NCBI GenBank assembly: GCA_021786105.1
Contig: JAJYNW010000018.1
Coordinates: 5,241 to 69,240 of the forward strand
Source: a bacterium
Lineage (GTDB): Bacteria > Patescibacteriota > Microgenomatia > Daviesbacterales > UBA10151
Length of the DNA: 64,000 nucleotides
Direction: 5' to 3'
Shown: positions 57,286 to 63,564 of the stretch, in pieces
How the letters are laid out: each line of letters opens with the position of its first letter
Position numbering within the stretch: the first letter of the stretch is position 1
The notes under the pieces: model-generated
The model's database searches: none
Told to the model about the DNA's origin: nothing
The model's input: the letters and a program-made list of their open reading frames with translations, nothing else
Program-made: the position numbers and the translations under genes

Positions 57286-58218
57286 ATGATTACCGTCACC
57301 GGCTCCCTGGCTTTTGATCACATTATGGATTATCCGGGGAAATTTTCCGATCACATCATGTCGGATAGAATTCATCAAATCAATCTGTCTTTTTTGGTCA
57401 CCACTTTAAAAAAACAAAATGGCGGCACTGCCGGCAACATTGCCTATAACCTGGCCCTTCTTAAAACTCCGGTGTCTATTGTTGGGATGGCTGGAGTTGA
57501 TTTTTTGGATTATGCCAAGTTTTTAGAAGAAGCCGGGGTGGATATTTCAAATATCCAAACTGCGAAAAATAATTTAACCTCTTCGGCCTTCATTATGACC
57601 GATCAAACAGATAATCAAATTACCGCCTTTTATCCCGGCGCCATGGAAGATACCCATAAATTATCTTTGGAAAGCATGGCGACTGATTTTGCCGTTATTT
57701 CTCCCAACAATCCCCAAGCCATGGTTAAGTTTGCGGCTGATTGCCAAAAGCAAGCCATCCCTTATATGCTAGACCCGGGTATGCAGCTGCCAGCCCTTTC
57801 TCCCGGCGATTTAAAAGACATGCTCAAAGGTGCCAAAATTTTAATCGGCAATGATTATGAAATTGCTTTGTTGAAAGAAAAGCTATTCTTATCTGACTCC
57901 CAGCTTTTAGACAAGGTCAAAATATTAATCACTACCTTAGGGGAAAAGGGTTCAGTAATTCAAACTAAAGACCAAACTTTACAAATCGATTCCGGCAAAG
58001 TTACCGAGGCTGTTGATCCCACCGGCGCCGGCGATGCTTATCGGGCCGGATTTTTGGCTGGTTTTACCAAAGGTTGGAATTTAAAGACTTGCGGGCAAAT
58101 GGGATCAATTGCCGCTTGTTTCGCAGTCGAAAAATATGGTACAACTAGCCATACATTTTCTTTGGAAGAATTTAAAAAAAGATATCAAGAGAACTTTGGA
58201 GAAGACTTAAATTTATGA
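57286..58218 (+). CDS. PfkB-family carbohydrate/nucleoside kinase (adenosine-kinase-like, given ahcY coupling)
   Basis: GG-dipeptide motif NGGTAGN and [13 protein letters not shown]. It overlaps the ahcY start by 4 nt. TATACT lies 7 nt upstream of the ATG. Confidence 0.75.
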
Positions 58219-59471
58219 AATCAGATGTAAAAGATCTAAAACTGGCGCCGAAAGGCAAACTGCGGATTGAATGGGCTGGTTCCCAGATGAAAGTGTTGGA
58301 ACTAATCAAAAAACGCTTTCAAAAAGAACAACCGCTCAAAGGGGTTAAACTGGGCGCTTGCCTGCACGTTACCGCTGAAACTGCCAACTTAATGATTGCT
58401 TTAAAGACAGGCGGAGCCGAGCTGTCTTTATGTGCCTCCAACCCTTTATCTACTCAAGATGATGTGGCCGCCTCGCTCATCGAAGATTACAACATCCCCA
58501 CTTATGCTATTAAAGGCGAGGATAAAGACACCTATTATAAACACCTAAACGAAGTCTTAGATTTTAAACCGCAAATTACCATGGATGACGGGGCTGATTT
58601 AGTCACCCTTTTACACACCGAAAGGAAAGATCAACTCAAAGATGTCATTGGTTCCTCTGAGGAAACCACCACCGGCGTCATTAGACTGCATGCCATGTTC
58701 AAAGACGGTACCTTACAAATCCCAGTGATTGCCGTTAATGATTCCAACACCAAACATATGTTTGATAACCGCTATGGTACCGGCCAATCCACCATTGACG
58801 GGATTATTCGGGCCACCAATGTGTTGCTCGCCGGCAAAAAATTTGTGGTTTGCGGTTATGGCTGGTGCGGCCGGGGGCTGGCTAGTCGAGCCAGAGGCAT
58901 GGGGGCACAGGTGGTTGTAACTGAGGTTGATCCGCTAAAAGCTTTGGAAGCTGTTATGGATGGGTTTGAGGTCATGCCTATTGCGCAGGCGGTAAAAGTT
59001 GCCGATATTATCTGCACTGCCACCGGTAATAAAGCGGTGTTATCAGTCGCACACTTTAAACAAATTAAAGATGGAGCCATTGTTTCTAACACCGGTCACT
59101 TTAACGTTGAATTTGATTATGATGGTTTGGTGAAAATTGCCAAAAGCCGACGGCATTTACGGGATAATTTGGAAGAAATTATTCTCAAAGACGGCAAAAA
59201 GATTTTTGTGTTGGGTGAAGGCCGCCTGATTAATTTAGCCTCCGCTGAAGGCCACCCGCCTGATGTGATGGATATGAGCTTTGCCAACCAGGCCTTGGCC
59301 GCCGAGTTTTTGGTCAAAAATAAAGGTAAATTAAAAGTTGATGTGTATACGGTGCCACAAGAACTGGATGATATGATTGCCCAATTAAAGCTGGAATCAT
59401 TAGGCGTCAAAATCGATACTTTGACTGCTGAACAGAAAAAATATTTATCTTCCTGGCACGAAGGCACTTAA
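58215..59471 (+). CDS. ahcY: Adenosylhomocysteinase (SAH hydrolase)
   Basis: Full-length AhcY with NAD-binding GYGWCGRG and a conserved C-terminus. Confidence 0.95.
59450..59471. repeat. 22-bp direct repeat copy 1 (TTCCTGGCACGAAGGCACTTAA), the 3' end of ahcY
   Basis: Exact copy at 60063-60084. Confidence 0.9.
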
Positions 59472-59474
59472 GTT

Positions 59475-59496
59475 GTAATTAATTACAGTATTTTTT
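59475..59496. terminator. Possible bidirectional terminator: 12-bp palindrome GTAATTAATTAC followed by a T-run
   Basis: AT-only stem, which is weak. It sits between convergent ahcY and GNAT. Confidence 0.25.
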
Positions 59497-59947
59497 CCAT
59501 ATGAATAGAAGGGAGCTTGCCTCCCTCAGAATTAACATGAAATCCCTCTTTGATCTTTCCGAATCCATGTTTTTCATAAAATTCCATTGCTGTCAAGGAA
59601 GAGTCAACCTTTAACTTCCTAACGCCCATTTTATATGCTTTTTGCTCTAAGTATGCAAGAATTTTTGCTCCTATTCCTTTCCTTAAATAATTTGCACTGA
59701 CATATATTGCGGTAATTTCATCATCTTTTAAAGAGCCTACCCCCACAATTTGGTTATTTTCAATAGCAATACAGGTAAAACGATTTTTGTCTTGCATTCT
59801 CTCTTTTACTTTTTCTTCTGTATCCGTTTTTTTCCATACCTTTATCTGTTCTGGAGAATAATCCTTTGCATTTACTTTCCTGATTGTATCCTGCGTTAGC
59901 AAACTAATTTCCCTTACTTCACTAATTTTTGCTTTTCTGATTAACAT
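59483..59947 (-). CDS. GNAT-family N-acetyltransferase
   Basis: Acetyl-CoA binding motif RKGIGAKIL. The gene is AT-rich relative to its neighbours. Confidence 0.8.
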   Translation of the reverse strand: MLIRKAKISEVREISLLTQDTIRKVNAKDYSPEQIKVWKKTDTEEKVKERMQDKNRFTCIAIENNQIVGVGSLKDDEITAIYVSANYLRKGIGAKILAYLEQKAYKMGVRKLKVDSSLTAMEFYEKHGFGKIKEGFHVNSEGGKLPSIHMEKIL

Positions 59948-60027: not shown

Positions 60028-60951
60028 TTAGCTCAAGAGCAAAAACGTTAGGTTTAACCGCATTCCTGGCACGAAGGCACTTAAATTTTTAATATATTCC
60101 GGATTTGTACCGCAACATCCGCCTATTATCTGAACCCCGCTCTTAATCCACTTTTGCGCTTCTTTTAAATAACTATCTGCTGCTTTTACTCCACCTCCCG
60201 TCCAACCCTGCACATCATCAACCCCCCCATCACCCTGGGCATAAACTCCAATAGGTAAATCAGTTAATTTTCTCAGTTTTTTCACCACTTTAGTAATAAT
60301 TCTTGGTGGCATGCAATTTAATGATATGAATAACGGTCCGTATGTTGCTATGACAGACACAGCTTTTTGCAGATCCTCTCCGCCTAACAATTGCCCCTTT
60401 GAATTACAACAAAAACTTACCGCTACCGGTATCTTTACTTTCTGTGCGGCTTGACAGACTGAAGCCGCCTCGTCAATACTAATCATAGTTTCAGCCAAAA
60501 CAAAATCTACCTCTCCTTTTTTAAGATTTCTAACATTTTCTAGATGTTCTTTTTTTAGTTCTTTAACAGGGGGCACTAAATCGGGTCTATAACAATCCTC
60601 CAAAGGAGCAATTGAGCCTCCCACCCAAGCTTGTTTACCTGATTCCCTAACTGCTTCTCTGGCTAATTTACAAGCCAATAGCGTGGCCGCTTTAGCTTTG
60701 TTTTTAAAATTAGCTTTTTTAAATGTTCTTTCTGTTGTTCTAAAGGTATTCGTCACAATAATCTGCGCCCCCGAATCAACATAATCTCTGTGGATTTGTT
60801 TAACTACCTCAGGATGTGTTAATAAAGCTTTAGCAGACCATAACGGCAGAGTGGTTCTAATGCCGCGGGCGGTAATTTCCGAACCAGTGCCTCCATTCAT
60901 TATGATAATTTGACCTGTTTTTAACAGGTTTTCCAACTGCTTAGCCGTCAT
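60028..60951 (-). CDS. Homocysteine S-methyltransferase (Hcy-binding domain, MmuM/YitJ-N-like)
   Basis: Zn ligands in GGCCGTNPEYI plus an upstream Cys. The C-terminal ~7 aa are encoded by the antisense of the 22-bp repeat. Confidence 0.85.
   Translation of the reverse strand: MTAKQLENLLKTGQIIIMNGGTGSEITARGIRTTLPLWSAKALLTHPEVVKQIHRDYVDSGAQIIVTNTFRTTERTFKKANFKNKAKAATLLACKLAREAVRESGKQAWVGGSIAPLEDCYRPDLVPPVKELKKEHLENVRNLKKGEVDFVLAETMISIDEAASVCQAAQKVKIPVAVSFCCNSKGQLLGGEDLQKAVSVIATYGPLFISLNCMPPRIITKVVKKLRKLTDLPIGVYAQGDGGVDDVQGWTGGGVKAADSYLKEAQKWIKSGVQIIGGCCGTNPEYIKNLSAFVPGMRLNLTFLLLS
60063..60084. repeat. 22-bp direct repeat copy 2
   Basis: Identical to 59450-59471. Confidence 0.9.
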
Positions 60952-60952
60952 T

Positions 60953-61867
60953 TTAACGTTTCCTCAACTGATACACAGTTAAATAATGATGTACATTTAA
61001 TTCTTCGCGTCCGCGGCCTGACGCGATACTCGCCAGTCTTCTTCTCTCAGCTTCTATTGCAGATATGGGGCTATAGAATCTATTAGCAACTAGTTCATGA
61101 AACCTTTGCCCATCATCAATCTGCGCTACCCAATGAATGCCGGTGTCCGGATCCTGTTGAATAGGCTCGGGAGTTTGAAACTGCCTCTCCACTTGCCAGC
61201 CTGTTTCAACAATCATTTTGGTTCTTATTTCTGGAGGCACTCGATCAGAAAGAATTATTAAAGCTCTCAAGCTGCTGTCTGCGGCAACTCTTAAATTATC
61301 TAAAGCAGCCGCATTCAACGTTAACCCCGGCAAATCCCAATCTCTACGATAAGAATTTAAAGTGAATGAACCATCGTATTTATCTGCTACATTTATTCCT
61401 TCGGGCGACTGAGGCAAACACATAATTACCCAACCTGATAATCTATTTCGTCCCGTAACAGGTCTAAATTTTTGCAGAAATTCAACTGCATCAGCTCGCC
61501 ATAACTCAACAGGACAATTTAGCCTAGCTGGTCCAGTAACTAAATTCACCCCAGCAGTTTGCAGCCGCCATTTTTCAATTTCTATCCCAAGCACTTCTTG
61601 TACATCATTGCCTACTTCCCTGATATTTCTGCCATCTCCAAGACCAAACTCTGTTATCGATCGACCTTTAAATCCGCCTTCTTCTCGTACCTGGCTGATA
61701 ACGCCTCTCATGAACTTACTCCAAGGATCGTCATAAGGGAAATCCACAGTTTCAAGATGTGGAAAAACTTGACCTTTAACTGTAATTTCTGTCTGCCTTA
61801 CAGGACATCCTGTAAGGCTAATCTCATTATTTGGTATATATTTTTCAATTCCTTTTTCTATTGCCAT
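60953..61867 (-). CDS. Uncharacterised class I SAM-dependent methyltransferase-fold protein (first gene downstream of the SAM riboswitch)
   Basis: Motif I ITEFGLGDGRN, post-I VLGIEIE, motif II RADAVEFL, motif III RLSGWVIMCLP. Not MetF-like. Confidence 0.5.
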   Translation of the reverse strand: MAIEKGIEKYIPNNEISLTGCPVRQTEITVKGQVFPHLETVDFPYDDPWSKFMRGVISQVREEGGFKGRSITEFGLGDGRNIREVGNDVQEVLGIEIEKWRLQTAGVNLVTGPARLNCPVELWRADAVEFLQKFRPVTGRNRLSGWVIMCLPQSPEGINVADKYDGSFTLNSYRRDWDLPGLTLNAAALDNLRVAADSSLRALIILSDRVPPEIRTKMIVETGWQVERQFQTPEPIQQDPDTGIHWVAQIDDGQRFHELVANRFYSPISAIEAERRRLASIASGRGREELNVHHYLTVYQLRKR

Positions 61868-61879
61868 ATTTTTGCCATT

Positions 61880-62061
61880 AAAAAACCTCTCTTGAAAGAG
61901 AGGTTAAATATTTTTGCCCATTTCGGACCTAATCCTCCCTTTACAGGGTTGGGTGTAGCACCTTAGGTTTGTCTAGGTTGCTGGATGGTTTCGAGCCAAT
62001 TCTCTATCTCCCGCTTTACTTTGAAGCTTTAGCGAAAGAGGCCATCACTCTTGATTCTTAA
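61880..62061 (-). promoter_or_regulatory. SAM-I (S-box) riboswitch with an intrinsic terminator/antiterminator expression platform
   Basis: Minus-strand RNA contains AAUCAAGAG (J1/2), ..GGGAGA.. (k-turn region), UGGCUCGAAACC, the P3 pair AGCAACC / GGUGCU, the P4 hairpin CCCUGUAAAGGG, and AGGAUUAGG (3' P1). The terminator is AACCUCUC-UUUCAA-GAGAGGUU + UUUUUU at 61880-61905, and AAGGGAGGAUU can pair with AACCUCUCUU as an antiterminator. Confidence 0.65.
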
Positions 62062-62080: not shown

Positions 62081-62109
62081 TTACTTTAAAATAAATCTAA
62101 ATTTTTGTC
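62081..62109 (-). promoter_or_regulatory. Putative promoter of the riboswitch-controlled operon (-35 TTGACA, 17 nt, -10 TAAAGT)
   Basis: The minus strand reads tatTTGACAaaaatttagatttatttTAAAGT, immediately after the stop of the upstream gene. Confidence 0.35.
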
Positions 62110-62113
62110 AATA

Positions 62114-63433
62114 TTAACTATTGACGAAAAAAGGGTATATTCTTCGCATCTGGGCAAATTCATGATACCCATTTCGACCATCAAAAGCAGAATCAATGCA
62201 TCTTTTTAAAGAATTCGCCTTAACAGCTACCGTTTTTCTAGATAATTCTTCGCGCGGCCTTTGCAACAATACATGCTCAGTTCCCTCCACAATCCCGCCT
62301 GGACCATCTTTAACTGCAATAGAAATTGCAAGGAAACCGGTTTGAGTAAAACGGTCATAATGAATTGCCGCCATATAACCACCACCCACTTTCAAATCTT
62401 TAGCTGACTCTTCTTCCGGCAATTCTTCGCTAAATCGCATCCAATAATAAAGATATTCTCTAGGGTATTTACCCGCTAAATTCATAATATTTTTAAAACG
62501 ATCTTTCTTAGGCAACAACAAAGGAGTTCTGGTAACTTCTGCCCAAACTGCTTCCCTTGCCTCTTCAGATAAATCAGGGTTAGACGTAGTTTCACCAACT
62601 TTGCGGCTTTGCTGCTCGGGATTAAGATCAGTAAGAGCCTTACTAACATCAACCATCGTCTGATCCATAAATTCAGCCACTGGATGAATTAGATCTGTAA
62701 ATACACCTTTCGTTCTTAATATCCTATCCAATGGTCCTTTAATAGGAATCTGAATCCCTCTTTGGCTTACCTGAGCTGTATCTATATCCAAAAGCTGACG
62801 GATAACTGCTTGATCACCTTTCACTTGTCCGTTTACTAAAGCACGAAAGAGCATTTCGCCAAAATACTCGTTATATTCCCCTCCGTCCACTGCTGTTTTC
62901 TCTCTTTCCTTTAGTTCGCTTTTATTCACTAATTCAATGTATTCATCTCTTACCTCAGGTTGGGAAAAATCAGGCAAGCTGAAAAGCGAAAAGTGAACTT
63001 TGGTAGGGATACTTTGGTAACCACTTTGCCCAAAAGAGCGAGGCGACCAGTTCCAACCGAAATCAATAACCCGTGCTTCCGGATCCTCCAGCATGGCACT
63101 AGCCAAATTTCCCACGACAAACATCAGCGCCTCACCTTCATCAACTGGAATCTTTTCTGGACCTGGCACATAATCTCTTGTCCAACGCATAGCTTGAAAA
63201 TGATCTCCTTTAGGAGTATAGCCGCCAACGGGCGCATAAAACATCCAATCAGTGCCTGCTACATTTACCAAACATAAAGCATTTGGGGTAATTTTTTCCT
63301 GCAGATAATCATTATTCAGGCTATCTTGGGACATCAGCCTCTTCATGGGGTCGCCCAGCAAATTTAAAAAGGGGACAGTAATTTTTGCTACCTGCTTCGA
63401 CCTCTCGCCGACAACTTCCGCAACTGCTGCCAT
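62114..63433 (-). CDS. Hypothetical 439-aa soluble protein of unrecognised family (start at the ATG at 63433; the ORF-track start is TTG)
   Basis: Long ORF with coding-like composition and a CCTTGACAA promoter context upstream. I could assign no motif confidently. Confidence 0.6.
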   Translation of the reverse strand: MAAVAEVVGERSKQVAKITVPFLNLLGDPMKRLMSQDSLNNDYLQEKITPNALCLVNVAGTDWMFYAPVGGYTPKGDHFQAMRWTRDYVPGPEKIPVDEGEALMFVVGNLASAMLEDPEARVIDFGWNWSPRSFGQSGYQSIPTKVHFSLFSLPDFSQPEVRDEYIELVNKSELKEREKTAVDGGEYNEYFGEMLFRALVNGQVKGDQAVIRQLLDIDTAQVSQRGIQIPIKGPLDRILRTKGVFTDLIHPVAEFMDQTMVDVSKALTDLNPEQQSRKVGETTSNPDLSEEAREAVWAEVTRTPLLLPKKDRFKNIMNLAGKYPREYLYYWMRFSEELPEEESAKDLKVGGGYMAAIHYDRFTQTGFLAISIAVKDGPGGIVEGTEHVLLQRPREELSRKTVAVKANSLKRCIDSAFDGRNGYHEFAQMRRIYPFFVNS

Positions 63434-63564
63434 ATTTTTGGGCAAATACTATCTTTAACCTTCCTAAAATGCTTTGTCAAGGAGTATTTTATGGTAATAT
63501 TGGAAAGTATGAGATTCTTTAAGACTGAAAGTCGCAAAAAATCTACCTTAAAGATACTAATTAG

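Follow-up and report, generated by a model that had tools for sequence, protein, structure and literature searches.

The window examined here, a stretch of 64,000 nucleotides (64 kb) of contig JAJYNW010000018.1 (GenBank assembly GCA_021786105.1), belongs to a metagenome-assembled genome of the Patescibacteria, within the candidate phyla radiation (CPR), and carries on its minus strand a two-gene operon preceded by a leader that resembles the S-adenosylmethionine (SAM) riboswitches of the SAM-I (S-box) class. All elements of this leader lie in the gap of 246 nt between an open reading frame (ORF) of 439/443 aa (62114-63445) and the ATG at 61867, where the first gene of the operon starts, and their positions are collected in Table 1. 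Neither Pfam nor NCBIfam offers a match for the upstream ORF, and the exact sequence of its 443-aa translation, read from a TTG start, is absent from the protein collection searched. The first gene encodes a protein of 304 aa, and the second, which begins 2 nt past the stop codon of the first, a homocysteine S-methyltransferase (HMT). A SAM-I riboswitch in control of a methyltransferase and a homocysteine methyltransferase had been proposed for this locus from the sequence alone (hereafter the original prediction), and all of the aptamer signatures that it listed are present in the minus-strand leader, as is GGAUUAGG.

Table 1. Positions of the features of the leader and of the operon that follows it (window coordinates).
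Feature	Position	Strand	Basis
Upstream 439/443-aa ORF	62114-63445	-	ORF list
Sigma-70-like promoter: TTGACA (62106-62111), 17-nt spacer, TAAAGT (62083-62088)	62083-62111	-	10/12 consensus matches
SAM-I-type aptamer, 135 nt, four-way junction P1-P4 and pseudoknot	61926-62060	-	R1, RF00162, family covariation
AAUCAAGAG	62048-62056	-	read from sequence
P1 5' strand AAUC, pairing with GAUU at 61931-61934	62053-62056	-	outward only G.A and A.G mismatches
J1/2 AAGA and first G of P2 (conserved AAGAG)	62048-62052	-	fits RF00162 consensus
P2a: GAUGG with CCAUC	62042-62046 with 61984-61988	-	4/6 P2a pairs compensatory in family
UGGCUCGAAACC	within 61986-61997	-	read from sequence
Insertion of 34 nt in the 5' (non-bulged) P2 strand	62008-62041	-	relative to L007
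P2b GAG/CUC, loop AAUUGG; UUGG (61996-61999) is the pseudoknot strand	61993-62004	-	P2b covaries in family
GAAA joining strand, where relatives carry the 6-nt bulged strand of a kink-turn (e.g., AUUGAU)	61989-61992	-	comparison with relatives
P3: AGCA-A-CC ... GG-UGCU, variable tip	61957-61982	-	cmscan alignments, folding
J3/4 ACA and CCCAA; CCAA (61949-61952) complementary to P2 loop UUGG	61949-61956	-	read from sequence
P4 hairpin CCCU-GUAA-AGGG, CCCUGUAAAGGG, 4 bp	61937-61948	-	read from sequence, folding
AGGAUUAGG	about 61928-61936	-	read from sequence
Putative switching sequence AAGGGAGGAUUAGG (P4 3' strand, J4/1, P1 3' strand)	61928-61941	-	duplex energies, folding
Candidate antiterminator: AAGGGAGG with CCUCUCUU	61934-61941 with 61896-61903	-	8 contiguous pairs, -11.2 kcal/mol
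Intrinsic terminator, 9-bp stem AACCUCUCU/AGAGAGGUU, loop UUCA, U6 at 61880-61885	61880-61905	-	hairpin finder
Mini-ORF AUGGCAAAAAUAUGGCAAUAG (M-A-K-I-W-Q-stop)	61858-61878	-	read from sequence
First gene, 304 aa, class I SAM-dependent methyltransferase (very probable), MmtN remote homologue	60953-61867	-	fold and profile
Second gene, 307 aa, homocysteine S-methyltransferase	60028-60951	-	PF02574, E 8.6e-62

As for SAM-I riboswitches in general (Rfam family RF00162), the four paired regions P1, P2, P3 and P4, all of which can be drawn on the window sequence, meet in a four-way junction with P4 enclosed by P1, and the P2 loop is complementary to the joining segment J3/4, as needed for the pseudoknot. 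The leader contains the segments AAUCAAGAG, AGCAACC, GGUGCU and GGAUU, all of which agree with the consensus where cmscan aligned them. Likewise, AUCAAGAG, GCAACC, GGUGC and GAU follow the Rfam consensus, and these motifs we take to include the positions that contact SAM in the structure of Montange and Batey (2006). The use of the aptamer 3' strand as the switching sequence of a terminator/antiterminator platform and the methionine- and SAM-related regulon, both described below, are further points of likeness. The window differs from RF00162 in that it has no kink-turn (K-turn), a P1 of four Watson-Crick pairs and a P4 of 4 bp, and in that its host is a CPR bacterium.

In a permissive Rfam scan, RF00162 is the best match at the site and the top-scoring member of its clan there, with 24.9 bits (E 0.0022); the scan otherwise returned only noise (e.g., tp2, Yfr10, Phe_leader). 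The original prediction had expected a score above the gathering threshold, which stands at 44.4 bits, and that expectation failed; from Rfam alone, the assignment of the window to SAM-I would be doubtful. The picture changes when relatives are considered. RF00162 gives 25.2, 41.5 and 43.4 bits for the leaders of orthologous genes, each with a complete P1-P4 alignment, and in a sample of the subfamily to which these leaders belong, 9 of 19 members score above the cutoff (44.9-54 bits) and the others between 27 and 44.1 bits. The subfamily is continuous with curated SAM-I and straddles the Rfam threshold. A covariance model, R1, built from 59 insert-free members (alignment A2, 105 positions), matches the window at 61926-62060 of the minus strand over model positions 1-105 with 65.9 bits (E about 7e-14), and this is its single match in the whole 64 kb. 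In the same alignment, G11, A12 and G13 of J1/2 are invariant and A10 is nearly so. The shortfall against RF00162 tracks an insert in P2, as insert-type relatives are also low (L036 32.5 bits, L018 27 bits), and the low score of the window is explained by a 34-nt hairpin in the 5' strand of P2 and by the absence of the K-turn G.A pairs.

Members of the subfamily were collected from metagenomes with a pattern for the conserved P3/J3-4 core, CCAGCAACC N5-35 GGTGCTAMACCCAA, which gave 92 stretches; some 85 of these contain a full aptamer of the same subtype. Homologous leaders carry the motifs of the window, and the element is kept upstream of orthologues with 52-77% protein identity. MAFFT was unreliable at the P3 tip and at P4, and these parts were realigned with the covariance model; the set used for covariation is the resulting model-based alignment of 85 distinct sequences, on which the SAM-I architecture and pseudoknot were imposed. 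Standard pairs occupy 90% of the cells, compared with 25-49% when the partners are slid by 1-3 columns. Changes on both sides are seen at 18 of the 32 pairs, as against 8.1 +/- 1.2 in column shuffles (0/500 reach 18), and compensatory changes are distributed over P1 (7/8 pairs), P2a (4/6), P2b (3/3) and P3 (2/7). The inner pairs of P1 are near-invariant, position 4 covaries (UA 29, AU 15), and the outer three positions are mostly unpaired, so that P1 is short (4-6 bp) throughout the subfamily. In P3, the pair that adjoins CC/GG covaries (GC 51, UA 18, CG 16); the other proximal bases of P3 are fixed by the search pattern. P4 is conserved and barely varies, and the pseudoknot UUGG/CCAA pairs in 99% of the cells with invariant bases, CCCAA being contained in the search pattern.

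The class and mechanism of the riboswitch are textbook, and the structural variant lies in P2. A K-turn normally bends P2 so that its loop reaches J3/4. The standard P2 of most members reads GAUGG-GGA-GAG ... CUC-AUUGAU-CCAUC, and that of the window GAUGG-CCUCUUUCGCUAAAGCUUCAAAGUAAAGCGGGAG-AUA-GAG ... CUC-GAAA-CCAUC. An insertion of roughly 30 nt had been recognized in the original prediction; it measures 34 nt and is absent from L007, which is the closest of the relatives without an insert (77% protein identity) and already has non-canonical AUA and AAUAAC strands in P2. On folding, the insert forms a 9-bp hairpin between UCUUUCGCU (62031-62039) and AGCGGGAGA (62007-62015), and the strand opposite is shortened from 6 to 4 nt (GAAA). 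A K-turn, with a 3-nt bulge followed by tandem G.A/A.G pairs, is absent from the window, since CC/UA and GAAA offer no such pairs. The GGGAGA segment, originally described as K-turn-like, forms the 3' arm of the inserted hairpin, and its use as a K-turn strand was rejected since no arrangement orders the C helix, the 3-nt bulge and the G.A pairs correctly. The P2 of the window is instead predicted to form a three-way junction of P2a, the inserted hairpin and P2b, and this junction, with the GAAA strand opposite, would supply the bend required for the UUGG/CCAA pseudoknot.

The same insert and the same GAAA strand occur in L018, L036 and L049, where the genes downstream differ, and P3 and P4 of L018 and L036/L049 have diverged in sequence yet are still paired. 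The truncated contig L105 (68% protein identity) starts with AAUUGGCUC-GAAA-CCAUCC and probably carries an insert of the window type; among the relatives, the GAAA strand is seen only in this contig and in the insert-bearing L018, L036 and L049. Because the same insert and GAAA strand recur at L018 and L036/L049, the insert is probably neither an assembly oddity nor a sign of decay. It is present as a single copy in the window, where a dispersed or mobile repeat was looked for. In eight more distinct sequences (L051, L029, L044/L088, L014, the second aptamer of L004, L095, L045/L071) this position is taken by a different hairpin, of 18-75 nt, and all 12 insert-bearing P2 domains (12/12) fold as three- or four-way junctions. 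In L051, L014, L095 and L045/L071 the K-turn bases GGA...GAU are retained, and the extra helix abuts P2b.

The latter group fits the topology of the k-junction, a three-way junction derived from a K-turn and known from the thiamine pyrophosphate (TPP) riboswitch (Wang et al. 2014, PMC4005666), in which a third helix, coaxial with the C helix, enters the non-bulged strand between 1n and -1n; in this group the extra helix is placed directly before the C helix (P2b). The inserted helix of the window is also in the non-bulged strand, but is located 5' of AUA, in the interval from P2a to where the G.A pairs would have been, with linkers of 2-3 nt on both sides and without the tandem G.A/A.G pairs (or A.A at 1b.1n) that define the NC helix. 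The P2 of the window is therefore not classed as a k-junction but as a junction in the same place, both for its lack of G.A pairs and for a helix that is on the other side of AUA. Literature that names both the SAM-I riboswitch and the k-junction, in the limited collection searched, describes no natural SAM-I junction variant. The pk-turn, which is structurally unrelated, can stand in for the SAM-I K-turn with SAM binding kept (PMC4316175).

Three further observations on peripheral helices may be added. A P2 with neither K-turn nor insert, with AUA in the 5' strand and GUUAAG or AAUAAC in the 3' strand, is found in L007, L017/L067, L055/L102, L065, L100 and L104, where the strands change together to give A.A and A-U at the G.A positions. 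The core 10-mer of the insert, CGCUAAAGCU (62025-62034 on the minus strand of the window), is found only inside these aptamers in about 600 kb of fetched loci, either at the tip of the P2 insert (window, L018, L036, L049) or at the tip of P3 (L009/L010, L104; sites L009:1128-1137 and L104:37-46), and may represent a peripheral module that recurs, perhaps as a mini-hairpin of the form GC-UAAA-GC. The second aptamer of L004 (2352-2507, plus strand) has two inserted P2 hairpins and a predicted four-way junction, and RF00162 aligned only its 3' part (2409-2506, 36.8 bits).

The expression platform is conserved along with the aptamer. A terminator, i.e., a hairpin and U-run, is placed by the hairpin finder within 70 nt downstream of 78 of 80 distinct aptamers (two look spurious), and its 5' arm usually reads CCUCUC(UU). 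This arm is complementary to the aptamer 3' end, (AA)GGGAGG, which comprises the P4 3' strand, J4/1 and the first base of the P1 3' strand. The duplex between the two has a family mean of -9.0 kcal/mol, compared with -6.8 +/- 0.23 kcal/mol for shuffled arms, none of which is as low (0/200). Own and other-locus terminators show little separation (-9.04 vs -8.65 kcal/mol) because most loci share the CCUCUC arm, which makes this a weak covariation test, and for the antiterminator pairing only the shuffled-arm control is informative. In L003 both partners have changed together, with GGGAGGGAU opposite AUCCCUUCU (-14.7 kcal/mol).

The window itself has the promoter at the 5' end of the leader, the plausible antiterminator, and the terminator hairpin with its U6 tract that the original prediction had proposed, the terminator stem being counted here as 9 bp. 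The hairpin, AACCUCUCUUUCAAGAGAGGUU, covers 61884-61905, and the final U of the U6 tract is 13 nt before the ATG. The antiterminator is incompatible both with P4/P1 and with the terminator. A promoter consensus match is by itself weak evidence, and promoter-like sites in the region are not above shuffles, nor are terminator-like sites significantly so; TTGACA is found at a comparable distance in the homologous leaders L004, L005, L007, L008 and L009/L010. The mini-ORF runs across the main start (61867) in another frame and begins 7 nt past the GAGAGG of the terminator, which resembles a Shine-Dalgarno sequence. Comparable ORFs of 3-6 codons are present in the leaders of L005, L007 and L009, and in L003 and L004 the main AUG is directly 3' of the U-tract. 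Judged from sequence, the 3' arm of the terminator may double as a ribosome-binding site.

Based on these elements, transcription would start downstream of the TTGACA/TAAAGT promoter, and SAM bound in the P1/P3 pocket would keep P1 (AAUC/GAUU) and P4 closed. With AAGGGAGG held in the closed aptamer, the AACCUCUCU/AGAGAGGUU hairpin and U6 would form and stop transcription before the operon. With little SAM available, AAGGGAGG would instead pair with CCUCUCUU in the terminator 5' arm, no terminator would form, and the genes for the MmtN-like protein and the homocysteine S-methyltransferase would be transcribed. That the leader binds SAM is inferred, as are the direction in which it would switch, the kinetics of this and the three-dimensional role of the P2 junction.

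The operon is as originally described, a methyltransferase followed by a homocysteine methyltransferase. The pair is kept in all twelve related loci read (L003-L010, L103-L105), and where the contig reaches far enough there is a gap of 200-470 nt upstream of the 304-aa homologue. No Pfam or NCBIfam entry matches the 304-aa product, whose family consists of 58-71 unnamed proteins without a Pfam domain, from Patescibacteria, Levybacteria or Saccharibacteria. A search of genome contigs gave one distant Saccharibacteria locus, L001 (39% identity), without an aptamer upstream. The AlphaFold (AF2) model of the protein is of high confidence (mean pLDDT 95.2, pTM 0.92), and in a Foldseek comparison with the PDB the best nine matches are all MmtN, the bacterial methionine S-methyltransferase (7vvv/7vvw/7vvx; E 4e-12 to 2e-11, TM 0.55-0.69), followed by generic methyltransferases at 3e-8 or weaker. 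A profile of the family against the PDB also places 7vvv first (E 1.3e-12, residues 36-251), the next match being at 4.7e-6. The family and 7vvv have in common the motifs DPW(S/T)E, E-GIG-G-N, CLPQ and GL-LN-A-L, and ExGxGDG, an acidic residue at 96 and CLPQ are conserved within the family. The residues of R. indicus MmtN compared for SAM and methionine binding were Asp69, Ser101/Leu102, Cys121, Glu127, Arg132 and Glu250. The equivalent of Asp69 is always acidic in the family and Cys121 (in CLPQ) is invariant; for Glu127 conservation is only partial, with E or D at the equivalent position in 29 of 56, and Arg132 and Glu250 are outside the reliable alignment. The 304-aa product is very probably a SAM-dependent methyltransferase homologous to MmtN, and methionine S-methyltransferase is the activity that we would favour, with some reservation.

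Active Group II MmtN enzymes have been described in CPR bacteria (Peng et al. 2022, PMC9135737), often adjoining HMT and sometimes methionyl-tRNA synthetase (MetRS), and an S-methylmethionine (SMM) cycle was proposed. These pairs of MmtN and HMT, found in CPR bacteria and DPANN archaea, are similar to the operon of the window in host, in the combination of an MmtN-like methyltransferase of about 300 aa with an adjoining HMT and other methionine-cycle genes close by, and in GxGxG, CLPQ and the Asp69 and Cys121 equivalents. A difference is found in the identity to R. indicus MmtN, which is about 20% for the 304-aa protein and about 30% for Group II according to the paper, and cluster look-ups and a profile search gave no match between the 304-aa family and the tested Group II accessions, hence the reservation on its activity. 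The paper mentions no riboswitch. Also at the locus, a PfkB kinase/S-adenosylhomocysteine (SAH) hydrolase gene pair (57286-59471, plus strand) is convergent to the operon, and a GNAT acetyltransferase gene (59483-59947, minus strand) that starts 80 nt past the HMT stop codon is possibly co-transcribed with it; with these genes adjoining the operon, most of the SAM-recycling pathway is clustered here.

The regulon of the subfamily was assessed from the first downstream ORFs of 74 aptamers with enough sequence. These encode SAM synthetase (metK, 3), MetE-type synthases (3), cysteine/methionine pyridoxal phosphate (PLP) enzymes (5), MetRS, methylenetetrahydrofolate reductase (MTHFR), HMT, SAM hydroxide adenosyltransferase and several SAM-dependent methyltransferases, and two further families recur without annotation. 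Since this is the classical S-box regulon, it argues independently for SAM as the ligand. One of the two families is represented by a 244-aa protein without Pfam match downstream of the second L004 aptamer, homologues of which follow the aptamers at L020, L041, L054, L057 and L074, which suggests an unannotated member of the SAM regulon. The other, of 106-124 aa and also without Pfam match, is the first gene at L033, L036, L055, L058, L067, L069, L079 and L082, and L036 has an aptamer of the insert type.

Several results weigh against the leader as a working SAM-I riboswitch. At gathering thresholds Rfam has no match anywhere in the window, and the cmscan alignment skips the P1 in AAUCAAGAG and forces a poor P1 further inward; the P1 of the window has only four Watson-Crick pairs. 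The pseudoknot and most of proximal P3 give no covariation support, being partly fixed by the pattern, and the fitting of alignment A3 to the structure of the model tilts the pair counts in favour of that structure. The inserted helix exists in just three distinct sequence versions, without clear compensatory changes. In constrained folds, the state with aptamer and terminator is at -49.6 kcal/mol and that with the antiterminator at -47.0 kcal/mol, i.e., about 2.6 kcal/mol less stable, and the free minimum free energy (MFE) structure of the leader (-52.9 kcal/mol) has the terminator formed and P1 open. Any switching would thus need to be kinetically controlled, as it usually is in S-box leaders. 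One could go further and take the missing Rfam match, along with promoter- and terminator-like sites at the level of shuffled sequence, as signs that an AT-rich intergenic region with a terminator has acquired S-box-like words by accident. Such an origin is exceedingly improbable, and with the E value of the sole R1 match in the window, the retention of the element upstream of orthologues and the covariation in the family, chance resemblance is effectively refuted.

A riboswitch that has decayed is a more serious alternative. The insertion, the loss of the G.A pairs and the 4-bp P1 may have destroyed SAM binding and left a constitutive attenuator or terminator, as the low RF00162 score, the 3' strand shortened to GAAA, and an MFE structure that contains the terminator regardless would suggest. 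Moreover, K-turn substitutions at 1b.1n are reported to impair folding and ligand binding of SAM-I (PMC4005666). Yet the insert and GAAA are kept in L018, L036/L049 and probably L105 before different genes, with P3 and P4 diverged and still paired, the core motifs, pseudoknot partners and antiterminator complementarity are all intact, a short P1 is typical of the whole subfamily, and other kinks can replace the K-turn; decay is for these reasons unlikely. A SAM-I fold with a changed ligand, such as SAH, S-methylmethionine or another SAM-related metabolite, appears more improbable still. The operon would both make and consume S-methylmethionine if the MmtN assignment is right, and it is counter-intuitive for an enzyme that consumes SAM to be under SAM-OFF control. 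The core motifs, however, are identical to those of standard SAM-I, the same aptamer subtype is found upstream of metK, metE and the cysteine/methionine PLP genes, and the pocket-forming bases of J1/2, P1 and P3 are the same in mmtN-linked and metK-linked copies.

The S-box riboswitch of the original prediction is thus upheld by the R1 score, by covariation in P1, P2a, P2b and P3, by the S-box genes downstream and by the conserved terminator platform. That prediction had coupled a sub-threshold RF00162 score with an inability to form P1-P4 and the pseudoknot as grounds for its dismissal, and of the two only the low score was found. From the sequence evidence, we consider it very probable that 61926-62060 of the minus strand is a riboswitch of the SAM-I (S-box) class, overlooked by curated annotation, that acts as a transcription-terminating OFF switch.

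The net reaction of MmtN and HMT is SAM + homocysteine -> SAH + methionine. With an OFF switch, the pair would be made when SAM is low, which would fit methionine regeneration or the use of external S-methylmethionine better than the drain for excess SAM derived from plants. The riboswitch is the first regulatory evidence found for the mmtN-HMT pair of the proposed prokaryotic S-methylmethionine cycle, and the placement of the operon in a SAM-repressed regulon together with metK and metE would constrain the purpose of that cycle. The subfamily also provides natural cases in which a helical junction either extends the SAM-I K-turn or takes its place, and these are suited to asking how motif-specific the kink in P2 is. 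The even-handed view that we take of the combined proposal extends to all of its parts jointly: that the SAM-I K-turn has in this lineage been replaced by a K-turn-free three-way junction originating from an inserted hairpin, that sister copies are k-junction-like and form with it a natural series of several unrelated kink architectures, and that SAM-OFF control of mmtN-HMT would induce the S-methylmethionine cycle at low SAM, in poor agreement with a drain for excess SAM; for this whole the chances seem equally divided. What is new here is modest, namely the replacement of the K-turn by a junction, the position of a CPR subfamily on the Rfam threshold, and the connection with the mmtN-HMT operon. 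The subfamily, which is large and present in Patescibacteria and groundwater, is recovered cleanly by R1, and because it is on or below the Rfam cutoff, S-box regulation is under-called in these reduced genomes.

Other variation was noted among the collected loci. L003 has an insertion of about 70 nt in P3 (2800-2880) and an extended P4 (2900-2935), and long insertions are found in P4 of L032, L033, L043, L073 and L094. A second, weak R1 match (27.8 bits, E 5e-4, 60% GC) precedes the main aptamer by about 100 nt in the near-identical loci L071 (4570-4662, plus strand) and L045 (474-566, minus strand); it may have arisen by chance or represent a degenerate aptamer in tandem. Finally, L054:13-488 (plus strand) matches Bacterial RNase P class A over the full model length with 61.5 bits against a cutoff of 100, and is another structured RNA of these organisms that scores well under its Rfam threshold.

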